Assembly: GCA_012512805.1 (NCBI GenBank)
Contig: JAAZDN010000075.1
Coordinates: forward strand, 1 to 56,441
Length of the DNA stretch: 56,441 nt
DNA from: Erysipelothrix sp.
GTDB lineage: Bacteria > Bacillota_I > Bacilli_A > Erysipelotrichales > Erysipelotrichaceae
Reading direction: 5' to 3'
Both the position numbers and the translations under genes were made by a program. Below are positions 23,498 through 51,956 of the stretch, one piece after another. Below the pieces are notes generated by a model. The model had not been told where the DNA came from, searched no databases, and worked only from the letters and a program-made list of their open reading frames with translations. Each line of letters opens with the position of its first letter. The stretch's first letter is position 1.

Positions 23498-23715
23498 CTG
23501 CCACCTCTTAATAATTCTAGCATATTATTATTTATACTGCTCTAAAAGGGTTCTTTTTATACATTTTAATAAATATTAAACAAAATTACATTGCATACGA
23601 CAATACTTAATACAAATAATATATGTTTTTGCAAATATGATGCATTTTTCACAAATATTTTACACTATTACGTATAGGTTGTGATATAATAAATTAATAG
23701 AAGGGGTTGAGTCGA

Positions 23716-25005: not shown

Positions 25006-25008
25006 GTT

Positions 25009-26502: not shown

Positions 26503-27413
26503 TGAAAAGAACCTTATATTTAGCATTATTCTTAGCAGTAGTTGCGGGCTTAGCGGGTGGACTGTTAACCTTAGTCGACTCTGTAACTCGTGATAAAATT
26601 GCTGAAGCTGAAATTTCAAAAGAATTAGTATACTTAGAAGTGATTTTCCCAGGTGGAACCTTCACCAAAGAAACTGAAAAATTAGAAGGAGCAGCTGGAC
26701 TGCTTGACCTCTATACAGTTGAAGGAAAAGGAACGGTATACAAGGTTGAAGAAACTGGATTTGGTGGAACAATTGTGTATCTCGTCGGTTTTGATACAGA
26801 TCAAAAAATTGTTGGTACTTCAGTGATCAGTCATACTGAAACACCAGGTTTTGGTGATGTTATTGAAACGGATACATTTAGTAGTGCAAACAGCGGTAAA
26901 AAAGCAACTGATCAATTATATATTTCATCTGGAGCAACTGTTTCATCTAAGGCAGTTAACCGTGGTATTTTAGCTGCTGCATCACATCTTTCTGGTGGTG
27001 AACTGGTAGCAGAACCTGAACAGCCAACCTTAGGCGATAAGGTCAGTCTCTCTGATGAAAAATTAAGTAAGTATCCAGCAACCATCGAATCAACAGAAGA
27101 AGATGGAGACAACGTAGTTTATCGTGTTAAAGCTGAAGGATACGGTCTTGTAGCCTCAGAATATCCAAGTCCTGATTATAAAGAAAACCTCTTTGTAATA
27201 ACAATCAATAAAGAAACAAGATCAATTGTCTCAATTGAACTTGAAGAATTTGGAGATACAAAAAATATTGGAGATGTCATTGACAATCCATTATACTTTG
27301 AATTATTTGTAGGTGTTAATTCACTTGACGCAGAAGTTGATACATACTCAAATGCGACGATCACGAGTTATTCACTCTTTAGTGCCATTAACGCGGTCTT
27401 AGCAGATCAATAG
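26502..27413 (+). CDS. rnfG: Rnf subunit G with two FMN_bind domains
   Basis: It has an N-terminal TM helix. The first domain carries the canonical SSGATVSS. The second domain (residues about 171-303) ends DTYSNATITS and is paralogous to the RnfD extension. Confidence 0.88.
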   Translation: MKRTLYLALFLAVVAGLAGGLLTLVDSVTRDKIAEAEISKELVYLEVIFPGGTFTKETEKLEGAAGLLDLYTVEGKGTVYKVEETGFGGTIVYLVGFDTDQKIVGTSVISHTETPGFGDVIETDTFSSANSGKKATDQLYISSGATVSSKAVNRGILAAASHLSGGELVAEPEQPTLGDKVSLSDEKLSKYPATIESTEEDGDNVVYRVKAEGYGLVASEYPSPDYKENLFVITINKETRSIVSIELEEFGDTKNIGDVIDNPLYFELFVGVNSLDAEVDTYSNATITSYSLFSAINAVLADQ

Positions 27414-27423
27414 GGAGGGTACA

Positions 27424-28071
27424 ATGTTTAAAAAAATTAAAGATAGTTTAGTTAACAATAATCCTGTCTTCTCATTATTTTTAGGATTATGTAGTGCCCT
27501 AGCGATTTCATCATCACTTGATAATGCGTTAGGGATGGGAGTTGGAGTCATTGTTGTACTCTTTATGAGTAACACTGTTATTTCATTAATTAGAAAAATT
27601 ACTCCAGACGAAATTAGAATTCCAGTATATATTGTAATTATTGCGGCTTTAACAAAATCACTTGATTTAATGATGGCTGCATATACGCCGATGTTGCACA
27701 GCTCACTTGGTACATTTATTCAACTTATTGCGGTAAACTGTATTATTCTTGGACGAGCTGAAAGTTTCGCATCTAAGAATGGAGTCTTTGCTTCAATGAA
27801 AGATGCATTAACAATAGGACTTGGCTTTACAGTATCACTTGTCTTAATATCAGTTACTCGTGAATTCTTAAGTACGGGTGGTTTGATCTTGAGTAATCCA
27901 TTTACAGGACTTCAAGTTGTTCAATTAGGCTTACCAGAAGCCTTAGCAAGTGATCTTAGTATTACACTCTTTAGAGCGCCTGCTGGAGCCTTCTTCACAT
28001 TTGCACTCTTTGCAGCATTATTTGCCTTTATTGGTGATGATAAGCGTAAACAGAAAGGGGTCTCTAAATAA
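27424..28071 (+). CDS. rnfE: Rnf subunit E
   Basis: 215-aa polytopic membrane protein at the expected position in C-D-G-E-A-B order. It resembles the RnfE/NqrD type (NNPVFSLFLGLCSALA). Confidence 0.88.
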   Translation: MFKKIKDSLVNNNPVFSLFLGLCSALAISSSLDNALGMGVGVIVVLFMSNTVISLIRKITPDEIRIPVYIVIIAALTKSLDLMMAAYTPMLHSSLGTFIQLIAVNCIILGRAESFASKNGVFASMKDALTIGLGFTVSLVLISVTREFLSTGGLILSNPFTGLQVVQLGLPEALASDLSITLFRAPAGAFFTFALFAALFAFIGDDKRKQKGVSK

Positions 28072-28637
28072 TGCATTATTTATCAATTTTCTTTGGAGCA
28101 ATGATTATCGAAAATATTGTTCTTACACGATTCTTAGGACTTTGTCCTTTCTTAGGTGTATCTAAAGATAAGAAGTCAGCGGTCGGAATGGGCTTAGCAG
28201 TAACCTTTGTTATCTTTGTATCTAGTGTCTTATCATATTTCTTAAGTCAAGTATTATCTAAGTATAACATTCAATATTTAGACCTTGTCTTATATATTTT
28301 AATTATTGCGGCATTTGTTCAACTTGTTGAACTCTTCTTAAAAGTTAAGATGCCAACCCTTTATAAGAGTTTAGGAATTTATTTACCACTCATTACAACA
28401 AATTGTGCGGTACTCTATGTTGCACTCACAACAGCTCGTATGAGTGATTTTGTTGAAGTTATCGTTTATTCATTAGGTGTTCCACTTGGATTTATGTTGA
28501 TGCTCTTCTTATTCTCAAGCATTCGTGCACGTTTAAAAGCATCATCTGTACCAAAATACTTTATTGGAAATCCAATTGCCCTAATTACAGCAGGACTTAT
28601 GGCCATTGCCTTTAGCGGTTTAGCAGGAATTATTTAA
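28071..28637 (+). CDS. rnfA: Rnf subunit A
   Basis: 188-aa polytopic protein of RnfA/NqrE type (ENIVLTRFLGLCPFLGVS, LPLITTNCAVL). Confidence 0.88.
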   Translation: MHYLSIFFGAMIIENIVLTRFLGLCPFLGVSKDKKSAVGMGLAVTFVIFVSSVLSYFLSQVLSKYNIQYLDLVLYILIIAAFVQLVELFLKVKMPTLYKSLGIYLPLITTNCAVLYVALTTARMSDFVEVIVYSLGVPLGFMLMLFLFSSIRARLKASSVPKYFIGNPIALITAGLMAIAFSGLAGII

Positions 28638-28780
28638 TGCTAGCAGGCCTTGTTCTAGCACTTATTGGAGGACTTTACGCACTGCTCTATTTTCTAAATG
28701 GACGTGCAAAAATGCCAGAAGGAGTCTCAGTCGTTACCGGATGTTCGATGTGTAATGATGAGCACTGCTCGAGACATTAA
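28637..28780 (+). CDS. 47-aa membrane micro-protein with a C-terminal Cys cluster
   Basis: Not in the ORF track. It has a TAATG overlap with rnfA. The translation is MLAGLVLALIGGLYALLYFLNGRAKMPEGVSVVTGCSMCNDEHCSRH. The architecture (one TM helix, a basic patch, CxxCxxxxC) resembles FeoB-associated Cys-rich membrane proteins. Confidence 0.55.
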   Translation: MLAGLVLALIGGLYALLYFLNGRAKMPEGVSVVTGCSMCNDEHCSRH

Positions 28781-28797
28781 ACGATGATGGAGGATAT

Positions 28798-29109
28798 ATG
28801 TTTATTTATGCTTTAAGTATTATGGTGGGATCAGGTTTAGTTTTAGGTTTTATATTAGGCTTTGCAGCATTTAAACTGCAGGTCATTGAGGATCCGCTCG
28901 TTGAACAACTAACAACTCTTTTACCAGGTATTAACTGTGGTGGTTGTGGCTATGCAGGATGTGAGGCATTTGCTAACGGTATTGTTGATGGTGACGTTAA
29001 AAAGATTTCGCAATGTCGTCCATCAAATGATGAACAAAGATCAAGTATTTCAGAATTATTAAAAAACACCCCAAATCAAAAGGGTGAATTCATTGATATT
29101 AAGATTTAA
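28798..29109 (+). CDS. rnfB: Truncated-format Rnf subunit B: membrane anchor plus a single Fe-S module, no ferredoxin domains
   Basis: 103 aa with a TM helix, then NCGGCGYAGCEAFANGIV...C. The ORF ends in TAA and is followed immediately by a strong terminator, so the short length is encoded rather than an edge artefact. Confidence 0.75.
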   Translation: MFIYALSIMVGSGLVLGFILGFAAFKLQVIEDPLVEQLTTLLPGINCGGCGYAGCEAFANGIVDGDVKKISQCRPSNDEQRSSISELLKNTPNQKGEFIDIKI

Positions 29110-38241: not shown

Positions 38242-38703
38242 ATGTCAAAAAAAGAATCATTTGATATAAAACGTAAAGGTTATGATCGTTTTGCTGTCGA
38301 TGCTTATGTAAGTCGTGTGAACCAAGAAAAAGAATTTTCACACGCTAAGTTAAATGTATACCGTAAGCAATTGGATTTTCTCAGTGAGCAGTTAGAACTG
38401 AAGCAAAATCAGAACATCCAACTGCTTAATGAAATTAAAAATGTTAATGATGTGATTGAGCAACATCAGCTCAATAATGACACTAGGAATAAATTAATTA
38501 CAGAAGCTCAAATGGCTGCTGATAAGATTATCTTAGAGTCATTACAAATAGCTAAAGAAGTACTTGATACAGTGAACATGACATCGTATAATACTAGTGA
38601 GTATAAACAGGAGTTATTAGCTGTTATTGATCGGGTTCGAAATTCAGTGTCAGAAATTGAAATTATGAAGCCAATCGAAGTAGATTTAGATTTAGAACGT
38701 TGA
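38242..38703 (+). CDS. DivIVA-domain coiled-coil protein
   Basis: 153 aa with the N-terminal F.I.RKGYDRFAVDAYV DivIVA motif, followed by heptad-rich sequence. Confidence 0.75.
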   Translation: MSKKESFDIKRKGYDRFAVDAYVSRVNQEKEFSHAKLNVYRKQLDFLSEQLELKQNQNIQLLNEIKNVNDVIEQHQLNNDTRNKLITEAQMAADKIILESLQIAKEVLDTVNMTSYNTSEYKQELLAVIDRVRNSVSEIEIMKPIEVDLDLER

Positions 38704-38727
38704 ACAAGCCATTTATTTTAAATAATT

Positions 38728-38902
38728 ATTAGAGACTTCATGGGTGGTGAAAATGAAGAATTATGAAATAATGTATCACTTGGGAGTTAACAATAGAAAT
38801 ATTGTCGCAGACGCTGCGTTAAAGCAAATGAGTGTGTAATAGTAATATTACAAATTTAGGTGGTAACACGCTAAAAGCGTCCTTTAGTGAGACGTTTTTT
38901 TT
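38728..38902 (+). promoter_or_regulatory. T-box leader (Ile specifier) controlling ileS
   Basis: AGAGA (38731-735) marks the base of stem I. A candidate specifier ATC plus A lies at 38775-38778. The T-box sequence AAATTTAGGTGGTAACACG is at 38852-38870, and the terminator AAAAGCGTC/GACGTTTTTTTT at 38873-38902. Confidence 0.8.
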
Positions 38903-38919: not shown

Positions 38920-41631
38920 ATGAATTATAAAGATACACTATTAATGCCGAAGACTGATTTTGAAATGCGTGCAGGTTTAGTAAAGAAGGAACCTGTCTTT
39001 TTAGAACGATGGGCAAACAATGACTACTATGCTAAGTTTTTAGCTAAAAACGAAGGAAAGCCAAGCTTTGTGCTCCATGATGGTCCACCATATGCCAATG
39101 GAGATCTTCACTCAGGTACAGCAATGAACCGTATTTTAAAAGACTTTGTTGTGAGATCGAAAGCAATGGCTGGATACTATACACCATTCTATCCAGGATG
39201 GGATACACATGGATTACCCATTGAAAATGCAATTATTAAAACTGGAATTGACTACAAGAAAATTTCTGTAGTTGCTTTTAGAGAAGCATGTGAAGCCTAT
39301 GCTTATGAACAAATTGCAAAGCAAAAAGAAACGATGAAACGCATGGGTACTGTTGCGGACTATAATAATCCATACATTACCTTAACAAAAGATTATGAAG
39401 CAGATCAGATTGCTACCTTTGGTAAAATGGCACAAGCTGGATTAATTTACCAAGGTCATAAGCCGGTTATTTGGTCACCAGCATCTGAAAGTGCACTTGC
39501 TGAATCAGAAGTTGTTTATAATGATCGTACAGATACTGCAATTTATGTTGCCTTTGATATTGTTGAGGGAAATGATGTATTAGAACATGGTAAGTTTGTT
39601 ATTTGGACAACAACTCCTTGGACCATTCCAGCAAACTTAGGAATTTCATTAAACCCTGCATTTAACTATGCTGTTGTTGAAACAAAAATTGGAAATCTTA
39701 TCCTACTTGAAGATAATGTTGATGCCTTATTAGCGAAATTCGAACTTGAAAACTTAGGTGTTAAAAAAGTTGTAAAAGGTGCACAGTTAGAATACATCAA
39801 AGCACAACATCCACTATATGAAGATGTTCAATCATTAGTAATGGTTGGAAATCACGTTAGTGCTGAAGAAGGTACAGGATGTGTACATACGGCTCCAGGA
39901 CACGGTGCTGATGACTACAACATCGGTGTAAAATATGGTTTAAAACCTTATTCACCTGTTGATGCCCAAGGACACTTAACTGAAGAAGCCGGTGACTTTG
40001 TTGCGGGTCAATATTATGAAAAAGCGAACAAAACAGTAGTTAATAAACTGGATGAAGTTGGAGCCTTAGTGCTTCAAGAGAAAATTACCCATAGTTATCC
40101 ATATGATGAACGTATGAAAACACCAATTATTTATCGTGCAACGGTTCAATGGTTTGCATCAATCGATAAGATTCGTGAAAAAGCACTTGCTGAAATTGCG
40201 AATGTTGATTGGAAAAATGAATGGGGAGAAGTACGTCTACACAACATGATCAAAGATCGTGGTGACTGGACAATTTCACGTCAAAGACAATGGGGACTAC
40301 CAATTCCAATTATTTATGCAGAAGATGATACACCTATTTTTGATAAGGAAGTTTTTGATCATCTAGAAACCTTATTTAGAGAACATGGTTCAAAAGTATG
40401 GTATGAGCTTTCTGCGAATGAACTTTTACCAGATGGCTACACACATCCAAATTCACCAAACAATGTCTTTACAAAAGAAAAAGATATCTTAGATGTTTGG
40501 TTTGATTCAGGATCATCATTCAACACCTTAAAAAATCGTGGTCTTGGAAGTCAAGCCGATCTTTATTTAGAAGGTAGTGATCAATACCGTGGTTGGTTTA
40601 ACTCTTCACTTATCTTAAGTATCGCAACAAACAACCAAGCACCTTACAAATCAGTCTTATCACACGGATATGTCTTAGACCGTTCAGGAGATAAGATGAG
40701 TAAATCGGTTGGAAATGTCATCGATCCTAACGATGTGATCTCACAAAATGGAGCGGATGTTTTAAGAATGTGGGCTGCTAGTATTGAATTTAAACAAGAT
40801 GTTCGCTTTGCGGATGACGTTATTAAACAGGCAAGTGATGCATACCGTAAGGTACGTAATACGTTTAGATTTATGCTGGGGAATGTTTCAGACTTTGATA
40901 TTACTAAGGATGAAGTTGCGTTTAATCAACTTAACAAATTTGATCAAGTCATGATGTATAAACTTAATGAATTAAACAAGAAAGTTCAAGCGGACTATGC
41001 AAACTTTGAATTCCAACAAGCAACCATTGCACTTTCACTCTTTTTAAACAATGAGTTAAGTTCATACTACTTAGATATTGCGAAAGATATCTTATATATT
41101 GAAAAGGCAGATTCACTACGCCGTCGCCAAGTTCAAACTGTTTTATGGTACACACTAGATACCCTAGTTAAACTCTATTCACCTGTTCTTGTCTTTACTA
41201 CTGAAGAAATTAATGATCATTTCATGAAGCATGATTCAATTCATAATACACACTTTAATGAGGTAGCAGACTATAGTAGTATTGAAGCATTAGTATCTGA
41301 GTTAAGTGAGCTTGAAGTCTTACGTGATGAGGTCTTAAAAGCCTTAGAAGTTAAACGTGAATTAAAAGAAATCGGAAAACCACTTGAAGCTCATGTTTCA
41401 TTTAATGTATCAAAAGAACAACAAGCTTCACTGACAAACTTCTTTGGAAATGACATTCACCAATGGTTAACCGTTTCAAGTGTTAGTTTTGAAGGAAATC
41501 AAGCTGAAAAAATTGTTGTAACAAAGGCCGTTGGTGAAGTATGTCCACGTTGTTGGAATGTCACTGCATCAAGTGCTGAAGATCATTTATGTTCACGTTG
41601 TGCTACTGTAATTAGTGCTGATCATGAGTAA
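38920..41631 (+). CDS. ileS: Isoleucyl-tRNA synthetase
   Basis: 903 aa with the HIGH-type motif PYANGDLHSGT, KMSKS, and a C-terminal CPRC...CSRC zinc motif. Confidence 0.95.
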   Translation: MNYKDTLLMPKTDFEMRAGLVKKEPVFLERWANNDYYAKFLAKNEGKPSFVLHDGPPYANGDLHSGTAMNRILKDFVVRSKAMAGYYTPFYPGWDTHGLPIENAIIKTGIDYKKISVVAFREACEAYAYEQIAKQKETMKRMGTVADYNNPYITLTKDYEADQIATFGKMAQAGLIYQGHKPVIWSPASESALAESEVVYNDRTDTAIYVAFDIVEGNDVLEHGKFVIWTTTPWTIPANLGISLNPAFNYAVVETKIGNLILLEDNVDALLAKFELENLGVKKVVKGAQLEYIKAQHPLYEDVQSLVMVGNHVSAEEGTGCVHTAPGHGADDYNIGVKYGLKPYSPVDAQGHLTEEAGDFVAGQYYEKANKTVVNKLDEVGALVLQEKITHSYPYDERMKTPIIYRATVQWFASIDKIREKALAEIANVDWKNEWGEVRLHNMIKDRGDWTISRQRQWGLPIPIIYAEDDTPIFDKEVFDHLETLFREHGSKVWYELSANELLPDGYTHPNSPNNVFTKEKDILDVWFDSGSSFNTLKNRGLGSQADLYLEGSDQYRGWFNSSLILSIATNNQAPYKSVLSHGYVLDRSGDKMSKSVGNVIDPNDVISQNGADVLRMWAASIEFKQDVRFADDVIKQASDAYRKVRNTFRFMLGNVSDFDITKDEVAFNQLNKFDQVMMYKLNELNKKVQADYANFEFQQATIALSLFLNNELSSYYLDIAKDILYIEKADSLRRRQVQTVLWYTLDTLVKLYSPVLVFTTEEINDHFMKHDSIHNTHFNEVADYSSIEALVSELSELEVLRDEVLKALEVKRELKEIGKPLEAHVSFNVSKEQQASLTNFFGNDIHQWLTVSSVSFEGNQAEKIVVTKAVGEVCPRCWNVTASSAEDHLCSRCATVISADHE

Positions 41632-42337: not shown

Positions 42338-44101
42338 ATGCAAACAAAAAAAGTATCAACAAAATATTTATTTAAGGTATTCTTTAATTATTTCAAACCA
42401 TACAAAAAGATCTTATTTTTAGATCTTTTTTGTGCGTCTTTAACGACAGTTTCAGCTTTAATGTTACCCTTGCTCGTTAAAACAATTACGAACACTGCGA
42501 CGGAAGATTTGAGCAAACTCACATTAAAGCTCATATCAACAATAGGGCTTATTTATATTGGACTTGTGCTCATTGAAACCATTGCTAAGTTTGTTATGGA
42601 CTCATGGGGCCATATTATGGGAGCCTTTATTGAAACGGATATGCGTCAAGACTTGTTTAAACATATTCAAAGTATGTCAATGCAATTCTTCAATAATACG
42701 AAGGTAGGACATTTAATGTCACGAATTACATCAGATCTTTCTGATATTTCTGAGTTTGCGCATCATGGTCCAGAAGAACTTGTTATATCATTTGTAACCA
42801 TTGTGACAACATTCATCATTTTAAGTACGATGAGTTTAAGTCTTACGCTCATAATTTTTATATTTTTACCGTTTATGATTTATTTTTCTTCGAAGCTAAA
42901 TGTACGTATGCGAGCAAGTTTTAAACGTCAAAGACAAATTGTAGGATCATTGAATGCGGATGTCGAAGATACTTTTCTTGGAATTCAAGTCGTTAAATCA
43001 TTTGCCAATGAAAATATTGAAGTGAATAAGTTTGCGAAAAGTAATGAAGAATTTATTAAAGTTAAAAAAGATGTATATTTTACCTTAGCAGAATTTCAAA
43101 GTATCGTAAGAATTTTCGATGGTTTAATGTATATTGTTGTCGTAGTAGTAGGGGCACTGTATGTTAAAAACGCCCACATTGGTGTTGGTGATTATTTAGC
43201 CTATTTACTGTATGTTACAACACTTTTAACAAGTTTACGCCGTATTGTTCAATTTGCAGAACAGTTCCAACGGGGAATGAGTGGAATTGAGCGATTTGTT
43301 GAAATTATGGACACCCCCATTGATATTAAAGATAAGGTTGATGCCATTGAATTGCATGATGTAAAAGGTGATATTGCCTTCAATAATGTCGACTTTGCCT
43401 ATGAAGATGGAAAAATGGTGCTTGAGGACTTTGATTTACACATTAAATCAGGCGATAGTATTGCCCTTGTTGGACCATCAGGTGGCGGTAAAACAACAAT
43501 ATCAAGTCTCATTCAACGCTTCTATGAAATAAGTAGTGGGAGTATTACGATTGATGAGCATAACATTCAAGATATTAGCTTAAGTAGTTTACGTGATAAT
43601 ATTGGTGTTGTTCAACAAGATGTCTATTTGTTCTCAGGGACAGTCTTTGACAATATTGTTTATGGACGACCAAAGGCTAAAATTAGTGATGTCATTAGTG
43701 CTGCGAAACTTGCAGGGGCAGATGATTTTATTAATGAGCTTGAGTATGGGTATGATACGTATGTTGGTGAGCGTGGTGTGAAACTATCGGGTGGTCAGAA
43801 GCAACGGATTAGTATTGCCCGCTTGTTCTTAAAAAATCCACCAATACTAATTTTAGACGAGGCGACAAGTGCCTTAGATAATGAAAATGAGCGTCTCATC
43901 CAACAATCTTTAAATGATCTCTCTCAAAATAGAACAACAATTACGATCGCGCATCGATTGACAACGATCAAAGATGTCGATAAAATTGTAGTAATTGATC
44001 AAAGAGGGATTGTAGAAGTTGGAAGTCATCAAACTTTGATGGATAAACAAGGATATTATTATGATTTATATAAACTATATGAATCAACTAATGGAGAGTG
44101 A
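42338..44101 (+). CDS. ABC exporter, fused permease and ATPase (MsbA/multidrug type)
   Basis: A six-helix TMD is followed by Walker A GPSGGGKTT, the signature LSGGQKQR and Walker B ILILDEATSALD. The start could be GTG 42332 or ATG 42338. Confidence 0.88.
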   Translation: MQTKKVSTKYLFKVFFNYFKPYKKILFLDLFCASLTTVSALMLPLLVKTITNTATEDLSKLTLKLISTIGLIYIGLVLIETIAKFVMDSWGHIMGAFIETDMRQDLFKHIQSMSMQFFNNTKVGHLMSRITSDLSDISEFAHHGPEELVISFVTIVTTFIILSTMSLSLTLIIFIFLPFMIYFSSKLNVRMRASFKRQRQIVGSLNADVEDTFLGIQVVKSFANENIEVNKFAKSNEEFIKVKKDVYFTLAEFQSIVRIFDGLMYIVVVVVGALYVKNAHIGVGDYLAYLLYVTTLLTSLRRIVQFAEQFQRGMSGIERFVEIMDTPIDIKDKVDAIELHDVKGDIAFNNVDFAYEDGKMVLEDFDLHIKSGDSIALVGPSGGGKTTISSLIQRFYEISSGSITIDEHNIQDISLSSLRDNIGVVQQDVYLFSGTVFDNIVYGRPKAKISDVISAAKLAGADDFINELEYGYDTYVGERGVKLSGGQKQRISIARLFLKNPPILILDEATSALDNENERLIQQSLNDLSQNRTTITIAHRLTTIKDVDKIVVIDQRGIVEVGSHQTLMDKQGYYYDLYKLYESTNGE

Positions 44102-44106
44102 TTGTA

Positions 44107-44679
44107 ATGCAACCTAAGTACTTAGTTGCGATTGACTTTGAAACAGCAAATAGTAATCCACACAGTGTATGTCAAGTTGGTCTTTTAGTATTCGAAGAGG
44201 GAGAACTCATTTTTGAATATGCGACGTACTTGAAGCCACCACTTGAGTACAATGAGTTTAATTACTATAACATTCAAGTCCATGGTATTACTGAACATAT
44301 GGTTAAGAATGCTCCAACGTGGAAACAGGTGTATGGAAATTTCAAACAGTATTTTGATGATGCGATGTTTGTTGCACATAATGCATCATTTGATATGAAC
44401 GTTTTAAAAAACATTAACCAGTATTACAACATTTCTTTACGACCATCACCATATTAATGTACGGTTGAACTTTCAAGAAAAGTTTATCCATATTTACCCA
44501 ATCATAAACTAAATACAGTCAGTGAATATTTGGAAATTGATCTGAAACATCATGATGCGCATAGTGATGCATATGCAAGTGCGATGATCGTTTTTAAGAC
44601 ATTACAGAATGTTGATGAGAAACTTGTTTCATCTTTATTTGAAAAAACTAACATGAAGAAGAAAATATTGTCAATTTAG
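44107..44679 (+). pseudogene. DnaQ-like DEDDh 3'-5' exonuclease interrupted by one in-frame TAA
   Basis: Exo I (AIDFET) and Exo II (HNASFD) precede the stop. The same frame continues after TAA 44455-44457 as CTVELSRKVYPYLPNHKLNTVSEYLEIDLKHHDAHSDA (Exo III, H-x4-D) to TAG 44677-44679. Confidence 0.8.
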
Positions 44680-44730
44680 TTACATTTAACTTACATTATG
44701 ATACAATAGATTGTGACTTGGAGGTTGTTT

Positions 44731-45114: not shown

Positions 45115-45157
45115 GAAAAACTAAAATTCATCTTAATATTATATTGAGGTGTTAATT

Positions 45158-45523
45158 ATGAAGGGAGTAGTATTCAGTACTACTTTTTTTGTACTCATAT
45201 TTGTGATCTTTCTTAGTTTTAGTAATTATATTTACTTTGATCATAACCGGAGCTTGATTAATCGATCCTTTAAATCTGCACTTATTCAAACAGCAGAAAT
45301 TCAAAGTGAGTCTCAAGATAACTTTGATACGATTCTGGATACGTTTTTATTAATCATTGAAGATAATCTCCCCAAAGGATTTGATTATTCATTTAGCTTA
45401 TATGGCTATCATCAAGATCCTTTACTTATTCGCATTAAGCTGAGTGCGAAAAGTAAGCATGGAAATTATCATTATGAGATGGAAGAAACAATAGTACAAA
45501 AGGAGGCAGAAACAAATGAATAA
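45158..45523 (+). CDS. Tad-locus small membrane-anchored protein (candidate minor pilin, TadE/F-like)
   Basis: 121 aa. MKGVVFSTTFFVLIFVIFLSF has an N-terminal hydrophobic helix right after MKG. It is the first gene of the coupled operon. Confidence 0.45.
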   Translation: MKGVVFSTTFFVLIFVIFLSFSNYIYFDHNRSLINRSFKSALIQTAEIQSESQDNFDTILDTFLLIIEDNLPKGFDYSFSLYGYHQDPLLIRIKLSAKSKHGNYHYEMEETIVQKEAETNE

Positions 45524-46217
45524 AAATAATGTGAAAATTGGATTAGGTTTAATTGGATTATTTGTTGTTAATTTCTTAGTCTTTAAAATCGCAGTAAGCC
45601 GTGAGATTGGTTTAATCGAAATTCCAGTAGTAAAGCAAGTCATTTTTCCAAGAACTAAAATAGAGGATTCAATGATTAAAATGTTAGAAGTCCCATCAAG
45701 TTTTGTATCAGATGCAATGTATACCGATAAAGAAGATATATTAAATCTTTACAGTGACATTCAAACGATGATACCAATAGGTTCACCATTTTATAAAAGT
45801 GTGCTCTTTAATGAGTCTGAACTTCCAGATTATCCTAAAATTCTATTGAAGGAAAATCAAGTTGTCTATACCTTAGATACAAATCTTGTGAAACTATCTG
45901 GAAATAGTATTGTGGTAAATCAAAAAGTTGATTTAATTACGACCTATCGAAATAAGAACGAGTCACCCCTTGTTGATGTTTTAGTATCATCGGTACGTGT
46001 AATCGGGGTTAAAGATAAAAAAGGTATTGATGTCTTGAATCCTAAGAGTTCAGGGACGCCCCATCTAGTCCTCTTAGCGCTCGATAGTGATTTACTTGCA
46101 ATTGTTAGAGCAGCAGATGAAATTGCATCCTTAGAATTGTTTGCACATTCAAAAGTTTTAAATGAAGAATCTGTTTTGAATACTGAGGCCAAAATTTTGG
46201 AGGTTATTAATGAGTAA
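45516..46217 (+). CDS. CpaB/RcpC-like pilus assembly protein (SAF plus beta-clip domains)
   Basis: 233 aa with an N-terminal TM helix. The periplasmic-type domain has the CpaB-like pattern (VV.Q.I...T.I...M...EVP.....). It overlaps the upstream gene by 8 nt. Confidence 0.6.
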   Translation: MNKNNVKIGLGLIGLFVVNFLVFKIAVSREIGLIEIPVVKQVIFPRTKIEDSMIKMLEVPSSFVSDAMYTDKEDILNLYSDIQTMIPIGSPFYKSVLFNESELPDYPKILLKENQVVYTLDTNLVKLSGNSIVVNQKVDLITTYRNKNESPLVDVLVSSVRVIGVKDKKGIDVLNPKSSGTPHLVLLALDSDLLAIVRAADEIASLELFAHSKVLNEESVLNTEAKILEVINE

Positions 46218-47160
46218 TTTTGATTTTGGTAAATTTCAAGCGTACATTGATGAAGAACATATTACGGACATTAATTACAATGGACATGAGATTTGGATTG
46301 ATCACATTGAAAAGGGAAGATATAAGGTAAGTGATGTCATGAGTGCACATGAGGTTGAAAACTTTTGTTATCGCTTTGCAAACTATGCCAATAAACAGTT
46401 TAATTACTCATATCCAATACTTGAAAGTGAGACGGATACCTTACGCATTAGTTTGATTCATAATAGCATTGCAAAGTCTGGATACTCAATATCAATCCGT
46501 AAAACACCCCCATATCTTCGACTACATACTGAGGAACTTATCGCATCAAACTATGCAACAAAACAACTTGTTGAATATTTAGAATCAAAGGTAAAAAAAC
46601 GCAAAAATATACTCATCAGTGGTTTACCTGGTGTTGGAAAAACAGAATTATTAAAATACTTAACAACATTCATTGTTGGGCGTGAGCGCGTCATTACGAT
46701 TGAAGATAACCTTGAAATAAGATACAACGTCATCCACAAGGATAAGGATAGTGTTGTGCTTAAAATCAATCAAAACGTTGATTATCGAGATGCAATCAAG
46801 GCCAGTCTTAGACAGCGCGTAGATTGGTTACTCTTAAGTGAAGTTCGAGGACAAGAAGTTGTGGAGCTTTTACAAGCAGTCTCAACGGGATCATCACTCA
46901 TTAGTACTATTCATGCGGAAAGTGCTAAACTCATCCCAAAACGTCTGTTACATATGTTTCCAGGTAATGAAATTGCAAATGAGAAAATAATGTATCGCAT
47001 CTTTGAAACAATTGATGTAGGTATTCATATTGAATCATTAATTAGTGAAGCTGGGATTCAAAGATACATCCAAGAAGTAGTAACGTATCATATTGATGAA
47101 TTTGATCAATTTCAAACAGAAGTAATATATGAACATTCAAAAGGGATGGTGAAAAAGTGA
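46210..47160 (+). CDS. tadA: TadA/CpaF-like secretion ATPase (T2SSE/VirB11 superfamily)
   Basis: 316 aa with Walker A GLPGVGKT, Asp box ITIED, Walker B DWLLLSEVRG and His box STIHA. Confidence 0.8.
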   Translation: MSNFDFGKFQAYIDEEHITDINYNGHEIWIDHIEKGRYKVSDVMSAHEVENFCYRFANYANKQFNYSYPILESETDTLRISLIHNSIAKSGYSISIRKTPPYLRLHTEELIASNYATKQLVEYLESKVKKRKNILISGLPGVGKTELLKYLTTFIVGRERVITIEDNLEIRYNVIHKDKDSVVLKINQNVDYRDAIKASLRQRVDWLLLSEVRGQEVVELLQAVSTGSSLISTIHAESAKLIPKRLLHMFPGNEIANEKIMYRIFETIDVGIHIESLISEAGIQRYIQEVVTYHIDEFDQFQTEVIYEHSKGMVKK

Positions 47161-48023
47161 TCGTTAGTTTTGGAGTACTAGCAACATGTTTTATCCTCTT
47201 CTTTCTTTACAATCAATTTTTTGAACTTAAACAAATTATGAAGCGACCCAAGTCAGTCATTGTTAGTCTATATGATCAACATTTCAACTTTCAAAGTCAA
47301 ATGACGCTCATCAAATTTTATCTTCCGCTGTTTACAATTATCATTTTTGTAACGGCACTGGCGAAATTATTAAACTTAAACAATGTGTACACCATATTAT
47401 TTGTACTTATTCAAATTAGTTTTATACCACTCATCTTATTGTTTAATATGTCCTATTTAAAAAGTATGAGTGAATATCGAAATTTAACGACATACTTAAC
47501 ACAATTTATACTCGTATTTAAATCGTTTGGTAAGGTTGTGCAAACTTTAGAACAGTTAGACCAAACACTCGATACGAAAACAAATGATGTTATATCAACA
47601 ATGATTGATCAATTAAAAAGTGGTGAAAGTTTAAAAACAGCTTTCAATATTCATATAAAAATGTATCCTCACTTCATCGTCAACAATCTTTATGCACTTG
47701 TTGAAAATATTGAAAAGTATGGAACCCATAATTATTTTGATGCACTCAATCTGATTCAAGATGATATTGATGATTGGTTGGATGATCTGGATGAGTACTA
47801 TACGCAAAAAAAGCAGGTCGTTTACAAAATTAATACCTTAATCATCTTTGCCTTTGTTATTGCTTTAATTGCAATGCGCATGCTCTTTTCAGTGTCATTG
47901 AGTACAAATACAAATCTATATCAAAGTGTCATTTTTAGTTTTTGTCTCATTGAGTATTTTACGTATGTGTTCGGACAATATTATTTACAGGGGGATTTTA
48001 TTGATGAGAGTGAAATTGTATGA
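47157..48023 (+). CDS. tadB: TadB-like platform protein (T2SSF-type)
   Basis: 288 aa with N- and C-terminal TM helices flanking a helical cytoplasmic domain (MIDQLKSGESLKTAF...). It has a GTGA overlap with tadA. Confidence 0.65.
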   Translation: MIVSFGVLATCFILFFLYNQFFELKQIMKRPKSVIVSLYDQHFNFQSQMTLIKFYLPLFTIIIFVTALAKLLNLNNVYTILFVLIQISFIPLILLFNMSYLKSMSEYRNLTTYLTQFILVFKSFGKVVQTLEQLDQTLDTKTNDVISTMIDQLKSGESLKTAFNIHIKMYPHFIVNNLYALVENIEKYGTHNYFDALNLIQDDIDDWLDDLDEYYTQKKQVVYKINTLIIFAFVIALIAMRMLFSVSLSTNTNLYQSVIFSFCLIEYFTYVFGQYYLQGDFIDESEIV

Positions 48024-48787
48024 GTATTCTATTATTTTATGCTCTTGTTATTCTCGCATACTTTTTCTTTGAACATGCTATTGCACAAACTGTAAAGAAA
48101 TACATATATGAGGATAATTTAGAGTTAATCCTTAAAATTACTACAGATCAACATTTGGATGAGTTTCAAAATTTACGATATAAAAAGATGAGTCAAATTG
48201 TACTTTTTGGACTTTTATTTCCACTCTTAAAGTTTAATGTATATTTTATATTAACCATTGTTATCGCAAGTATTTATTCGTATAAACTACCATATTTGCG
48301 ACTAAATAAACAATATAAGCATAATATTGCTCTACTTCGTTTTAGTTTTCCAGTGTGGTTACGTCAAATTCAAATACTTCTTTATAATCACAATGTTATT
48401 AATGCAATTGAGTTAACGATAGATAATGCACCACACATATTGAGTGATCAGCTGGAAAGTCTTGTTAAAAGTTTAAAGAAGAATCCAAATGATCTGGATG
48501 CCTTTAATCAATTTATGATTGAATATCGCATTCTTGAAATAGATCGTGCTATGAAACTCTTATATCGAGCATATACTGTTGAACAAGACGATACGCGCAT
48601 ACAATTATCTCGTATGATTGAGTCAACAACTAAGTGGATGAAACAAGAGCGAAGAAAACGTAATGAAGCTGTATTGAAACAATACGAATGGCTTGGAATT
48701 CTACCGTTATTAAGTGTCACCGTCATCTTTATGATTATGATGGTTGGACTTATTAATAATTTATTTGGAAAGGGGGGTGGAATATGA
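48020..48787 (+). CDS. tadC: TadC-like platform protein (T2SSF-type)
   Basis: 255 aa with the same architecture as the preceding gene and an ATGA overlap. Confidence 0.65.
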   Translation: MSILLFYALVILAYFFFEHAIAQTVKKYIYEDNLELILKITTDQHLDEFQNLRYKKMSQIVLFGLLFPLLKFNVYFILTIVIASIYSYKLPYLRLNKQYKHNIALLRFSFPVWLRQIQILLYNHNVINAIELTIDNAPHILSDQLESLVKSLKKNPNDLDAFNQFMIEYRILEIDRAMKLLYRAYTVEQDDTRIQLSRMIESTTKWMKQERRKRNEAVLKQYEWLGILPLLSVTVIFMIMMVGLINNLFGKGGGI

Positions 48788-48930
48788 AAGCATTCTTTGA
48801 AGAATATGGACTTGTATTAATTGTAATTGTCTTAGCGACTGCAATGTTAAGTTTCTCTACTGATTTCGGGAAAACGATGCAAGGATCATTAAATGACATG
48901 TGGGACAGCATGACTGAAGGTGATGTCTAG
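48784..48930 (+). CDS. Flp-family-like pilin (48 aa)
   Basis: Not in the ORF track. It has an ATGA overlap with tadC. The translation is MKAFFEEYGLVLIVIVLATAMLSFSTDFGKTMQGSLNDMWDSMTEGDV. An EY plus hydrophobic helix resembles the Flp motif (xxxxEYGLI). Confidence 0.6.
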   Translation: MKAFFEEYGLVLIVIVLATAMLSFSTDFGKTMQGSLNDMWDSMTEGDV

Positions 48931-49259
48931 TGAAAGGCGCCTATGAGTATTTTGTCTTAGTTTTCTTAGGTATGACCTTTGTGTTAATGGGGTTTTCAAT
49001 GGTTGAAGTTATGTTAGATTACAATCAAGCTCGACTGTATCAGGAAACAATTGTTTCACTCATTGAACGACATCATCGCTTTGACGAAGATATCGCAAAC
49101 CTCATTAAAGAGCGACAGAAAATATGTAATAAATGTCAATATCAAGTCATAAAAAATGCTGAACATTACGAAGTGAGTGTACTGTTTAAACTTGACATTA
49201 AAATCTTAGCTTACAAGAAAAATGCCTTGATAAAGACTTATACCCAAAGAATATTGTAG
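48930..49259 (+). CDS. Candidate minor pilin (TadE-like N terminus)
   Basis: 109 aa, starting MKGAYEYFVLVFLGMTFVLMGFSMVEVML. The GTG start overlaps the pilin stop by 1 nt. Confidence 0.45.
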   Translation: MKGAYEYFVLVFLGMTFVLMGFSMVEVMLDYNQARLYQETIVSLIERHHRFDEDIANLIKERQKICNKCQYQVIKNAEHYEVSVLFKLDIKILAYKKNALIKTYTQRIL

Positions 49260-49274
49260 CTTTGGGTATTTTTT
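49242..49274 (+). terminator. Intrinsic terminator closing the Tad-like operon
   Basis: ACCCAAAG-loop-CTTTGGGT followed by a T-run. The stop codon of the last gene lies in the loop. Confidence 0.75.
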
Positions 49275-49320
49275 ATTGAAGTTAGCGTAAAAAAAGATTA
49301 GAATACGTATAGGTGATATT

Positions 49321-50067
49321 ATGTTAATTACAGTAGATATAGGCAATACCGATATCGTAACCGTTTTATTTGATGAAAACAAGCACATTGTAAAACAAGA
49401 TCGTATTAATTTAAAAAGTGTTTTAGTGAATAGTAATTTAGATTATTTTGATAATCTTTTTGTTGAATGGAATTTAAAAAACATTAACTACATCGTTGCG
49501 TGTGTTGTTCCTGATATTCTCAAAAGTGTTGAAGATAAATTTTTAGAATTGAGTAATGCACGTGGAATCATTCTTGAATCTCACATGTTACCTAATTTTA
49601 CGAACGATAAGTCTGAGGTTGGAACCGATTTAATTGCGGTAAGTTTCCCATTTCGAAAAGAAGCAATTCCAACTGTTGTAGTAGATATGGGAAGTGCCAG
49701 TAAAATAATTCTAGTTTTAGATGGACAACTAAAAAGTGTCGCTATTATGTTAGGTGTTCAAAATACAATGCTCGCATTAGCGAGTCGGATCAAACATCTT
49801 CCTGAAGTTAAGTTAGAATTTCCTGATGAACTTTTAGGAGAAACAACGGTTACAGCAATTCAGGCTGGACTCATGTATTCGCAAGCTTATGGTATCAGAG
49901 GTTATGTAGATGAGATTGAACAATCACTAAAACAGCCTATTAAGCGAATTCTAACCGGAGGAATTGGTGCGATATTCAAGGATAAACTAACAGAATTTAC
50001 GTATGAGCCAACCTTATTAAATGATGGTTTATATGCTATTTATCAAGAGGTCATTCAAAATGATTAA
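49321..50067 (+). CDS. coaX: Type III pantothenate kinase
   Basis: 248 aa with the MLITVDIGNTDIV phosphate-1 motif and DMGSA. Confidence 0.85.
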   Translation: MLITVDIGNTDIVTVLFDENKHIVKQDRINLKSVLVNSNLDYFDNLFVEWNLKNINYIVACVVPDILKSVEDKFLELSNARGIILESHMLPNFTNDKSEVGTDLIAVSFPFRKEAIPTVVVDMGSASKIILVLDGQLKSVAIMLGVQNTMLALASRIKHLPEVKLEFPDELLGETTVTAIQAGLMYSQAYGIRGYVDEIEQSLKQPIKRILTGGIGAIFKDKLTEFTYEPTLLNDGLYAIYQEVIQND

Positions 50068-50680
50068 TATCGGTATATCCATCGTAACAACAATAATGTC
50101 TCTATTATGTTTAATCATGATCATAAGAATTAAGTTGAACACAAAAGGGAGTATGTTATTTCAACAGTTTAGCCTCGTTATTTTAAGTGGGATCTTATTA
50201 ATAATTAACAGTGTTGTTTCATTATATGTTCAACATCAATATTTTGAACTGCTTAATACCTTGAGTTTTATACTTTTAAATTGGTTTTTAATCAAAGCAT
50301 GGGCTACAACCTATAATCAAATTAGAAAGCAAAAGGTTACATTATTTTTAAAGGTTTTATTAATGTTTGAATGTATTGTTGCACTATTAAATATTTTTGA
50401 TTTAAATATGGAAGTAATTGTTAATGTGAGTACATATAATATATTGAATACAATGGTCTTATTTTTTATCATGATACTTTTCATTCGTTATCAAACAATA
50501 AAGAGTAGTATTAACTCACGTTCTGTTATTATTACATTAGTCGGTTTTATGATGGCTTTAATGGGTGTGAATGGCTTATTGTATCCGTATCATCTTATAT
50601 TTTTAACACTATTTAGCATCTTATTGTTTATCTTTAGTTTGAATATTTGGGATGATGTTAAACAATCATCGTATTATTAA
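50060..50680 (+). CDS. Hypothetical polytopic membrane protein
   Basis: 206 aa from ATG 50060 (overlaps the coaX stop), with about six or seven hydrophobic helices. No catalytic motif recognised. Confidence 0.45.
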   Translation: MINIGISIVTTIMSLLCLIMIIRIKLNTKGSMLFQQFSLVILSGILLIINSVVSLYVQHQYFELLNTLSFILLNWFLIKAWATTYNQIRKQKVTLFLKVLLMFECIVALLNIFDLNMEVIVNVSTYNILNTMVLFFIMILFIRYQTIKSSINSRSVIITLVGFMMALMGVNGLLYPYHLIFLTLFSILLFIFSLNIWDDVKQSSYY

Positions 50681-50715: not shown

Positions 50716-50845
50716 ATTCATATCAAGAATGAGGGAGAGAGTTAGCTCATAGAACTCATACCAACCTGCAATGCAAGGTGGTAATGCTAACGTCGATAGT
50801 TATATTTCGTCAACATCTCTTTCTTGGGGTGTTTTTTAATGAAAG
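50716..50845 (+). promoter_or_regulatory. SAM (S-box / SAM-I-like) riboswitch candidate upstream of metK
   Basis: The promoter TTGCAT-16-TATAAT (50682-50709) precedes ATCAAGAATGAGGGAG...CCAACC-TGCAATGCA-AGGTGGTAATGC...GATAG. This echoes the SAM-I conserved blocks AUCAAGAG..GAGGGA, GCAACC..GGUGCUAA and GAUGAG. A downstream CTCTTTCTT is complementary to the metK SD GAAAGAAGGG. Confidence 0.6.
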
Positions 50846-50855
50846 AAGGGTTAAA

Positions 50856-51956
50856 ATGAGTTATTTATTTACAAGTGAGTCCATTACGCCAGGTCATCCA
50901 GATAAATTGTGTGATCAAATAGCGGATACAATATTAGATGAAGCTTTACGACAAGATAAGTACAGTAAGGTCGCGATTGAGTGTTCAATCAAAGATGAAT
51001 TGATTATGATTTTTGGAGAGATTACATCAGAAGCAACAATTGACTATGCAGCGATTGCAAAAGATGTTGTGAAATCAGTAGGGTACACTGAAGAGTATGA
51101 AGTAATTACTAAAATATCAGCACAATCTTCAGAAATTAATACTGCTGTTGTGAAGTCAAATGAAATTGCAGCAGGAGATCAAGGGTTAATGTTTGGTTAT
51201 GCTGTAAATGAAACAGAAAACTATATGCCTCTTTCTATCGAACTTGCGCATAATCTTTCACGTCAATTAACAAAGGTATTTCAAGAGCAATCAGAAAATA
51301 TTCTAAAGCCTGATGGTAAAACACAGGTTACGGTTGAATATAAAGATAATGAAATACACCGTATTGATACAATAGTATTATCAACACAACATTATGCTGA
51401 GATTACACAAGAATTTTTAAGAGACTATATATTAGAACATGTTATTCTTCCAATTGTAGATTCATCATTAATAGATGATCAAACAAAAATAATTATTAAT
51501 CCAAGTGGTTCCTTTATTGTTGGAGGATCATTCGGTGATAGTGGGACGACGGGTCGTAAGATAGTTGTAGATACATACGGAGGACATGGACGAATTGGTG
51601 GAGGCGCTTTAAGTACGAAAGATCCATCAAAAGTTGATCGTAGTGCAGCATATTATGCACGTTATGTCGCTAAGAATATTGTTGCGAATAAACTTGCTGA
51701 TCGCTGTGAAATTCAAGTTGCGTATGCAATAGGACTTGTTGATCCTGTATCAGTGTATATTGAAACATATGGTACTCATAAAATTCCCGTTCATGAAATT
51801 TTGGAAATCGTTAACAATAATTTTGATTTCTCAGTAAATAACATTATTACTGAACTTGATTTACTCCGTCCAATCTATGCTGATACGGCTAATTTTGGTC
51901 ACTTTGGACGTGCTGATATTAAATTCCCATGGGAAAATGTAAAAGACTTAAAATAA
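50856..51956 (+). CDS. metK: S-adenosylmethionine synthetase
   Basis: MSYLFTSESITPGHPDKLCDQIAD, GDQGLMFGYA, GGGALSTKDPSKVDRSAAY. The start is set at ATG 50856; the track start at 50778 runs through the riboswitch. Confidence 0.95.
   Translation: MSYLFTSESITPGHPDKLCDQIADTILDEALRQDKYSKVAIECSIKDELIMIFGEITSEATIDYAAIAKDVVKSVGYTEEYEVITKISAQSSEINTAVVKSNEIAAGDQGLMFGYAVNETENYMPLSIELAHNLSRQLTKVFQEQSENILKPDGKTQVTVEYKDNEIHRIDTIVLSTQHYAEITQEFLRDYILEHVILPIVDSSLIDDQTKIIINPSGSFIVGGSFGDSGTTGRKIVVDTYGGHGRIGGGALSTKDPSKVDRSAAYYARYVAKNIVANKLADRCEIQVAYAIGLVDPVSVYIETYGTHKIPVHEILEIVNNNFDFSVNNIITELDLLRPIYADTANFGHFGRADIKFPWENVKDLK

Follow-up and report, generated by a model that had tools for sequence, protein, structure and literature searches.

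What kind of machine is specified by a chain of seven overlapping genes in Erysipelothrix sp., and do its pilin-like products need a prepilin peptidase? The genes lie in contig JAAZDN010000075.1 (assembly GCA_012512805.1), of which 56,441 nucleotides (nt) were analysed; this whole stretch is called the window below. Seven open reading frames (ORFs), g1 to g7, on the + strand at 45158-49259 form one overlapping gene chain with a single terminator at its end. A preliminary description, made from the letters alone, had taken them for a minimal, divergent Tad or type IVc-like filament operon, and this view is supported by the homology of g2, g3 and g6, by the paralogy of g4 and g5, and by the predicted folds of g1 and g7. 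Judging from these comparisons, we consider it reasonably probable that these genes together specify a complete, minimal Tad-type (type IVc) filament machine for a single-membrane cell. The same seven-gene order was found in about 60 Erysipelotrichales loci (L001-L061) in one-genome-per-species data, and the carriers include E. inopinata, E. urinaevulpis, E. aquatica, Traorella and Dielma. Since the gene order recurs in so many related genomes, the operon stands far beyond chance. Its features are as follows.

45158-45523, + strand: g1, a 121-amino-acid (aa) pilin-like protein starting MKG, with one N-terminal transmembrane helix; candidate minor or tip pilin (AlphaFold2 model)
45516-46217, + strand: g2, a 233-aa bitopic protein of the CpaB/RcpC family (Pfam, PDB profile search, hhalign)
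46210-47160, + strand: g3, a 316-aa secretion ATPase of the CpaF/VirB11 clade (Pfam T2SSE, PDB match, neighbour-joining tree)
47157-48023, + strand: g4, a 288-aa polytopic platform protein, TadB-like (weak T2SSF match, paralogy to g5)
48020-48787, + strand: g5, a 255-aa polytopic platform protein, TadC-like (weak T2SSF match, paralogy to g4)
48784-48930, + strand: g6, a 48-aa Flp-like major pilin starting MKAFFEEYGLV (conserved N-terminus, PDB profile search)
48930-49259, + strand: g7, a 109-aa pilin-like protein starting MKGAYEY; candidate minor pilin (AlphaFold2 model)
45146-45151, + strand: Shine-Dalgarno (SD) sequence of g1, GAGGTG, read off the sequence
48770-48780, + strand: SD sequence of g6, AAGGGGGGTGG, read off the sequence
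49240-49275, + strand: intrinsic terminator with a 10-bp stem, a 10-nt loop and T6, overlapping the g7 stop codon

Motor, putative platform and pilin-like proteins

The ATPase g3 is the component most firmly placed in a family. The T2SSE (PF00437) scan was positive, with 95.8 bits against a cut-off of 24.9, and membership of the superfamily is clear. All four motifs attributed to the protein at first reading are present, namely Walker A GLPGVGKTE (residues 138-146), Asp box RVITIEDNLE (160-169), Walker B DWLLLSEVRG (205-214) and His box LISTIHA (230-236). The closest solved structure was CpaF (8rkd, E 1.7e-21), followed by archaeal GspE, the VirB11 protein HP0525 and FlaI. The match to the 501-aa CpaF chain is limited to residues 148-444, and the suspicion that g3 is short for its type therefore holds: it is truly short, lacks the CpaF N-terminal extension and contains the core N-terminal and C-terminal domains only. 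All NCBIfam equivalogs scored far under their cut-offs: VirB11 (TIGR02788) 127.5 bits against 249.95, TadA-conjugal 126.8, TrbB 105, FlaI 81, and ComGA (NF041000) 71 bits against 300. More than 1,200 relatives of the ATPase family were found in a large protein collection, the best-matching of which are named Erysipelothrix sp., Erysipelotrichaceae and Dielma.

The CpaB-like identity proposed for g2 was confirmed by two profile comparisons. The g2 family profile had RcpC 9gzr as its sole match in the PDB (E 1.3e-6), and hhalign aligned it with the annotated CpaB of pXO1 at 99.5% (E 8e-23). Pfam RcpC (E 2.1e-5) and TIGR03177 (E 7e-8) also matched, both under cut-off. In six Erysipelotrichaceae loci (L022, L026, L029, L038, L043 and L045), g2 is gone, g1 adjoins the ATPase gene directly and the operon has six genes. 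CpaB thus appears to be dispensable in some Erysipelotrichaceae.

The assignment of g4 and g5 as two T2SSF-type platform proteins stands in part. They are distant paralogues over about 130 residues in the T2SSF-like region (hhalign 88%, E 2.9e-6), and Pfam ranks T2SSF first for each of them, but every score lies under the Pfam cut-off of 25.2 bits. For g4 the match has E 0.004 and spans model positions 2-122 of 125, and T2SSF is the leading family among the g4 orthologues (6 of 46); for g5 the window protein gave E 0.31, with E <0.01 in 2 of 44 orthologues. PDB profile searches with g4 and g5 returned irrelevant coiled-coil matches only, such as CENP-Q and Sin3.

The 48-aa product of g6 had been read as a Flp-like pilin, and its two best profile matches among 177,635 PDB sequences are Tad/Flp pilins (8u1k and 8u2b). 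Its orthologues start MK[A/S]F[F/L]EEYG, with M1, K2, F4, E6, E7 and G9 invariant in 24 diverse sequences, and an exhaustive representative search returned 7 clusters, all of the MKAFFEEYG type. Flp_Fap matched 2 of the 24 orthologues (E 0.034).

For g1 and g7 the early reading went no further than 'small anchored proteins', and it missed a predicted architecture that would suit minor pilins. The AlphaFold2 model of g1 (predicted local distance difference test score, pLDDT, 82) has helices at 2-51 and 56-70 and strands at 75-85, 89-99 and 105-114; that of g7 (pLDDT 86) has helices at 2-48 and 53-61 and strands at 70-76, 79-90 and 95-104. The common plan of a roughly 50-residue N-terminal helix, a short second helix and a three-stranded sheet is pilin-like, and on these models both proteins are candidate minor pilins. 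Most g1 orthologues start MK[G/S]; g1 itself starts MKGVVFS and has no conserved Glu. The g7 orthologues start MK[G/A]x[F/I/V/L]E, with M1, K2 and E6 invariant (n=42). The top Pfam families are DUF5411 for g1 orthologues (8/39, best E 1.2e-6) and DUF4320 for g7 orthologues (14/42). The conserved N-terminus of g7, MKGAYEY, is read from a GTG start codon lying across the TAG stop of g6; the public gene call for g7 in the same contig is only 86 aa long (P0121) and begins at an internal Met.

Most orthologues of the operon in Dielma fastidiosa are labelled hypothetical by NCBI. The automatic names given in Dielma nevertheless indicate a Tad-type system as well and include RcpC/CpaB family for g2 (NCBI) and, in UniRef, TadB for g4, 'GspF domain-containing' for g5, 'Flp family type IVb pilin' for g6 and 'TadE-like' for g7.

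The operon shares with the Tad/Flp systems (Caulobacter Cpa, Aggregatibacter Tad and Bifidobacterium breve Tad) a single ATPase apparently of the CpaF/TadA clade, two paralogous putative platform proteins, a CpaB/RcpC protein, a pilin of some 45-50 aa that carries an EYG motif but lacks a globular domain, and additional small proteins of pilin-like predicted architecture. It differs from them in that neither TadZ nor TadV is encoded in the operon (linked loci scanned), that the pilins have no class III leader with Gly(-1), that g3 lacks the N-terminal extension and three-helix bundle of CpaF and falls outside the proteobacterial CpaF clade, and that the window platform, pilin and minor-pilin proteins all score under Pfam cut-offs. 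Three features that define Tad systems are missing here: the prepilin site, TadV and TadZ. In Bulleidia there is a canonical tad locus of 13 genes, which includes tadV and is different from the window operon (PMC12786226). The ComG pseudopilus of Firmicutes is likewise a monoderm type IV filament encoded by a compact single operon, with short leaders. Unlike the window operon, it has a single fused platform protein, ComGB, and ComGC-type pilins whose G/FTLxE site is ComC-dependent, in place of the N-termini MKAFFEEYG, MKGAYEY and MKGVVFS; the ComGA score of g3 given above is also remote from the ComGA cut-off.

Several results speak against a Tad-type assignment of these proteins. The placement of g4 and g5 in T2SSF depends on sub-cut-off Pfam scores, and their profiles did not match the single Rhizobium TadB and TadC sequences to which they were compared by hhalign (<1% probability). 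The PDB pilin matches of g6 are weak (E 0.054 for 8u1k and 0.51 for 8u2b), Pfam Flp_Fap and TadE scans of the window proteins gave no match, and Foldseek searches of the g1 and g7 models against the PDB gave no significant match. The alignments behind the two models were shallow because the word-based homologue search returned just 10 matches for g7 and 2 for g1.

Taken as a Tad-type machine, the operon would work as follows. The hexameric ATPase g3, cut to its catalytic core, would dock on a TadB/TadC-like heterodimer platform formed by g4 and g5, and the two together would pull the 48-aa g6 from the membrane and add its copies to a growing helical fibre. The g1 and g7 proteins might prime or cap the fibre as minor pilins, g1 possibly at the tip because it has no conserved Glu, which g7 has. 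The CpaB/RcpC protein g2 would form an optional extracytoplasmic collar around the fibre.

The layout is that of an operon as first described: the seven chained ORFs overlap by exactly 8, 8, 4 (GTGA), 4 (ATGA), 4 (ATGA) and 1 nt (TAG/GTG). The promoter may be situated ahead of the 133-aa ORF at 44713. Strong SD sequences stand at g1 and g6, and in 39 of 41 orthologous loci g1 has an SD-like motif before it. The single terminator said to close the operon is borne out by the hairpin and T6 at 49240-49275, whose fold has -16.7 kcal/mol (z = -3.45) and was equalled by 0 of 200 shuffles. A simple consensus terminator scan missed this hairpin because its loop is 10 nt long.

Leaderless pilin-like proteins and the prepilin peptidase

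To our knowledge, all known type IV pilins carry a cleavable leader peptide. The three pilin-like proteins of the operon (g1, g6 and g7) start with Met-Lys and have no class III leader. When g6 was aligned by profile with the mature Flp pilin, Caulobacter PilA, its E7-Y8 fell on E5-Y6; the leader of g6 can therefore be at most 2-3 residues long, and the Gly(-1) cleavage site is absent. The Met-Lys pair alone occupies the place of the Gly-ending leader of other Flp prepilins. The Flp processing site G/XXXXEY is accordingly not found in g6, while the EYG motif is present and aligned to mature E5-Y6-G7.

The starts of these genes are well delimited in many loci. There is no in-frame upstream start before a stop in 34 of 68 loci for g6, 56 of 59 for g7 and 31 of 41 for g1, and an SD-like motif stands ahead of g6 in 67 of 68 orthologous loci. 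N-terminally extended versions of g6 in databases were rejected as artefacts of gene calling, their extra residues being translated from the end of tadC and the SD sequence. In one relative of g6 (P0136), the residue before KAFFEEYG reads Ile, and the start may be ATA/ATT or another codon.

The claim that no A24 peptidase (TadV/CpaA) accompanies the operon was upheld. None of the window's polytopic ORFs matched Peptidase_A24. In 82 related loci (916 kb), 92 distinct small polytopic ORFs lying at most about 6 kb from the operon were equally negative; those 92 ORFs gave 12 families, including Rnf, ECF, LrgA/B and similar. TadZ (ParA/MinD-type) had no match in the operon, in the operon-flanking ORFs or in the Pfam-annotated loci L001 and L002. 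The reported absence of TadZ and of a secretin agrees with the lack of a match to either in the operon-flanking ORFs, most other window ORFs lying outside the scan.

The Met-Lys starts without a class III leader fit the missing peptidase. Whether the pilins need no prepilin peptidase is, on the sequence comparisons made here, an evenly balanced matter. They are probably inserted with the Met-Lys end in the cytoplasm, and they may be assembled uncleaved.

The residue at position 3 is a ground for a different view. It is Gly, Ala or Ser in most orthologues of g1, g6 and g7, so that a peptidase with its gene at another site could cut behind a 3-residue leader, which tells against leaderless assembly. 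The operon would then specify an ordinary Tad pilus whose pilins are cut after a very short MK[G/A/S] leader by an A24 peptidase such as ComC, the enzyme serving the comG competence pilus. Firmicute ComG prepilin leaders go down to about 5 residues, which counts in favour of this view; we know of no A24 substrate with a 3-residue leader, which counts against it. Also against it, residue 3 falls at +1 and not at -1 when g6 is aligned to mature Flp; in L006, L008 and L059, g6 and g7 alike have Ile, Met or Leu at position 3, and the pilin-leucine-rich repeat (LRR) protein of Lachnospiraceae described below has Val there; and an A24 gene is linked to the operon in 0 of 82 loci. Different systems are known to share one peptidase, as MSH loci do (PMC6668835), and ComC is a candidate because comG is reported to be vertically inherited in Erysipelotrichales (PMC12786226), a further point against uncleaved pilins. 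Taking both sides together, we hold this short-leader explanation to be a genuine but clearly less probable alternative.

The A24 peptidase has been regarded as universal and as part of the ancestral core of the whole superfamily, and where a locus has none it has been assumed to borrow one (Denise et al., PMC6668835). If assembly without a leader were true, the processing of prepilins by an A24 enzyme, taken as a hallmark of all type IV filaments, would be dispensable, and leaderless systems would be invisible to pilin finders keyed on the leader and cleavage site. As a very small filament machine, with six or seven genes and a 316-aa motor, the operon would also give experiments a handle in cultured gut and animal-host organisms (Dielma and several Erysipelothrix).

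Plasmid relatives and the relation to conjugation systems

A tblastn search against plasmids placed a Peribacillus plasmid and a pLS20-type B. subtilis plasmid at the top (32% identity), followed by pXO2 and pXO1. Modules that are collinear with and homologous to the window operon lie at the following positions.

L084, 6353-10441: pLS20-type plasmid NZ_CP125813.1, genes 36-40
L086, 4343-8229: pXO2
L083, 6368-10223: Peribacillus plasmid

The pLS20-type order is a 126-aa MKG protein with a transmembrane helix, the ATPase, proteins of about 268, about 245 and 120 aa, and then 47-aa proteins. Like the window operon, the pLS20, pXO2 and Peribacillus modules hold in collinear order a DUF5411-like protein, an ATPase, two polytopic proteins of about 250-280 aa, a DUF4320-like protein of 120 aa and a hydrophobic protein of about 47 aa. 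Comparison of the window and pLS20 proteins by hhalign gave 76% for g1 and p36, 60% for g4 and p38, 88% for g5 and p39, and 68% for g7 and p40. DUF5411 is common to g1 orthologues and pLS20 p36, and DUF4320 to g7 orthologues, pLS20 p40 and the pXO2 counterpart. The g6 profile had no detectable similarity to the 47-aa protein of pLS20, p41 (MLDQNADRMYW...). Unlike the window operon, the pLS20/pXO2 module has no CpaB and sits among VirB4, VirD4, VirB6 and VirB8 genes, and its ATPase, unlike g3, has 400-440 aa with an N-terminal extension.

The pXO1 plasmid has a Tad-like locus (cpaB, an AAA ATPase and a CpaF/VirB11 family protein) that resembles the window operon in other respects. Its CpaB is clearly homologous to g2, its ATPase belongs to the same Firmicute clade (87%), and its platform protein is a weak T2SSF match, as is g4. 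It differs from the window operon in having a TadZ-like AAA ATPase and a normal pilin leader ending in Gly, MLTKMKNWLKNEDSQLSSENG/MLIAL.

The relationship of the ATPases was assessed with a neighbour-joining tree (297 columns, 500 bootstraps) built without an archaeal or PilB/PilT outgroup. The Erysipelotrichales and Lachnospiraceae ATPases grouped at 100%, as did those of pLS20, pXO2 and Peribacillus; the two groups joined at 86%, and pXO1 joined them at 87%. This Firmicute clade was set apart from proteobacterial CpaF, TrbB and VirB11. In the published gene table of pLS20, gene 37 is a 'putative VirB11', genes 36, 38, 39, 40 and 41 are 'unknown', and no prepilin peptidase is listed (PMC8557374). 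The nearest relatives of g3 are the 'putative VirB11' proteins of pLS20/pXO2 conjugation operons, standing in the same collinear module, a connection that the preliminary description had missed. It had named clustering of the ATPase with VirB11 or a type IV secretion system (T4SS) as an outcome that would count against a filament system. In the tree, g3 lies outside the proteobacterial VirB11, TrbB and CpaF groups, and its sister clade carries the VirB11 label but has Tad-type partner genes.

Given this sister clade, with pLS20 gene 37 and its pXO2 homologue at 86% bootstrap, it could be argued that the operon is a chromosomal derivative or remnant of a Gram-positive conjugation apparatus, with g3 as its VirB11 and the small proteins as channel parts. 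The collinearity with pLS20 genes 36-40 and the fact that VirB11 is the top NCBIfam score of g3 (127.5 bits) point the same way. However, that score is far under its cut-off, the flanks consist of housekeeping genes, and no VirB4, VirD4 or relaxase was seen in the annotated loci L001 and L002. In addition, the chromosomal site is conserved across an order, and the partner genes are CpaB, T2SSF-like and Flp-like, types that T4SSs do not have. The window operon itself does not belong to a conjugative element; a conjugation-related role for it is unlikely, and its origin as a remnant of a T4SS is highly improbable.

We propose instead that the same module was recruited into, or from, pLS20/pXO2-type conjugation operons, and from the sequence comparison genes 36-40 of these plasmids look like a Tad-like machine that has gone unrecognised within the T4SS operon of a Gram-positive system. 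This homology re-labels five pLS20 conjugation genes, so far 'unknown' or 'VirB11', as a Tad-like module and turns them into a testable hypothesis of mating-pair formation in Gram-positive bacteria. A fibre of pLS20 and pXO2, if true, would bear on whether Gram-positive conjugation systems make pilus-like structures. A literature search found no description of the operon or of type IV pilins made without a leader, and no paper that interprets pLS20 genes 36-41 as a Tad system. The parts are recognisable, some of them already with automatic Tad-type names, and the leaderless variant is apparently undescribed. Tentatively, and with less confidence than we place in the Tad-type assignment itself, we suggest that this is the first type IV filament family assembled without a class III signal peptide and an A24 peptidase, and that pLS20/pXO2 genes 36-40 build a Tad-like fibre.

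Possible function, inheritance and genomic neighbourhood

A variant of the system in Lachnospiraceae (for example Robinsoniella and Lactonifactor) bears on the function of the fibre. Its ATPase is 43-46% identical, it has no CpaB, g4 and g5 are fused into one platform protein of about 450-500 aa, and its pilins start MKSFLEEYG or MKAFLEEYG. At one of these loci (L070, 8720-9844), a 374-aa fusion protein begins like a pilin (MKVFIQEYG) and continues into BspA-type LRR repeats. Based on this fusion and by analogy with the general role of Tad pili, the fibre may be an adhesin, a suggestion that we make with some reserve. The adhesion reading is also favoured by a secreted LRR/fn3 protein that adjoins another locus of the Lachnospiraceae variant (L069, 10260-12047).

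A pseudopilus for DNA uptake or protein export, in place of an adhesive pilus, is conceivable too. The very small size and strong conservation of the pilin would suit such a role, as would the behaviour of the operon as a core trait passed on vertically. Precedent for DNA uptake comes from Micrococcus luteus, in which Tad-type pili are reported to drive natural transformation (PMC4322843). Against this stand the adhesin-type LRR modules of the Lachnospiraceae variant and the finding that no comEA/comEC-type genes lie beside the operon in the scanned flanks, L001 and L002. Moreover, comG competence operons are already reported to be present and vertically inherited in the order (PMC12786226). 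We regard the pseudopilus as unlikely, and adhesion as the better of the two candidate functions.

From spot checks, the operon had been thought more AT-rich than neighbouring core genes and compatible with horizontal acquisition. The first of these points holds marginally. The window has a GC content of about 34%, and the operon, at 32.0%, is slightly low against 34.4 +/- 1.1% in other 4.1-kb windows, 4% of which are as low; but GC at third codon positions (GC3) is ordinary, with 0.23-0.37 in the operon genes and 0.19-0.34 in the neighbours, and so not lower in the operon. A low total GC with an ordinary GC3 is the pattern that AT-rich codons for hydrophobic residues of membrane proteins would give. 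The chromosomal site is also conserved: coaX is directly downstream in 36 of 46 loci, and rnfB is at most 2.6 kb upstream in 22 of 41. Horizontal acquisition was rejected because of this conserved synteny (coaX and rnf) and the ordinary GC3. The operon is vertically inherited across the order Erysipelotrichales and was not recently acquired.

The operon does lie among housekeeping genes, as stated at the outset, with ileS, a SpoU methylase, an ABC transporter, coaX and metK in its flanks. The flanks hold a T-box with ileS, the SpoU methylase gene, an ABC exporter, an exonuclease, coaX, a SAM riboswitch with metK, DegV and tRNA-His, and further upstream lie lepA and the rnf operon. In many relatives (for example L001, L002, L007 and L011) the rnf operon is directly upstream of the pilus operon. 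In the window it lies at 23707-29109, and about 16 kb (with topA-like, ileS and ABC genes among others) separate it from the pilus operon, which suggests a rearrangement or insertion between the two in the lineage of the window.

The T-box leader at 38691-38887 (105 bits) is directly upstream of the isoleucyl-tRNA synthetase gene at 38920-41631. The exonuclease, of the RNase_T/DnaQ type, is apparently split into 44098-44457 (model positions 1-101 of 164) and 44530-44679 (an H-x-A-x-x-D-like motif); a frameshift, a pseudogene or an assembly error is possible. The SAM riboswitch at 50717-50802 (46.3 bits) lies upstream of metK and overlaps the start, at 50778, of the longest ORF (50778-51956). 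Because of this overlap, translation of metK probably begins at the ATG near 50856 instead (MSYLFTSE). The ORF at 50021-50680 overlaps the end of coaX by 47 nt; with 25.6% GC, it is the most AT-rich ORF listed. It encodes 219 aa with six predicted transmembrane helices and no Pfam match, and it may be a divergent S component of an energy-coupling factor (ECF) transporter, since relatives carry that gene after coaX.

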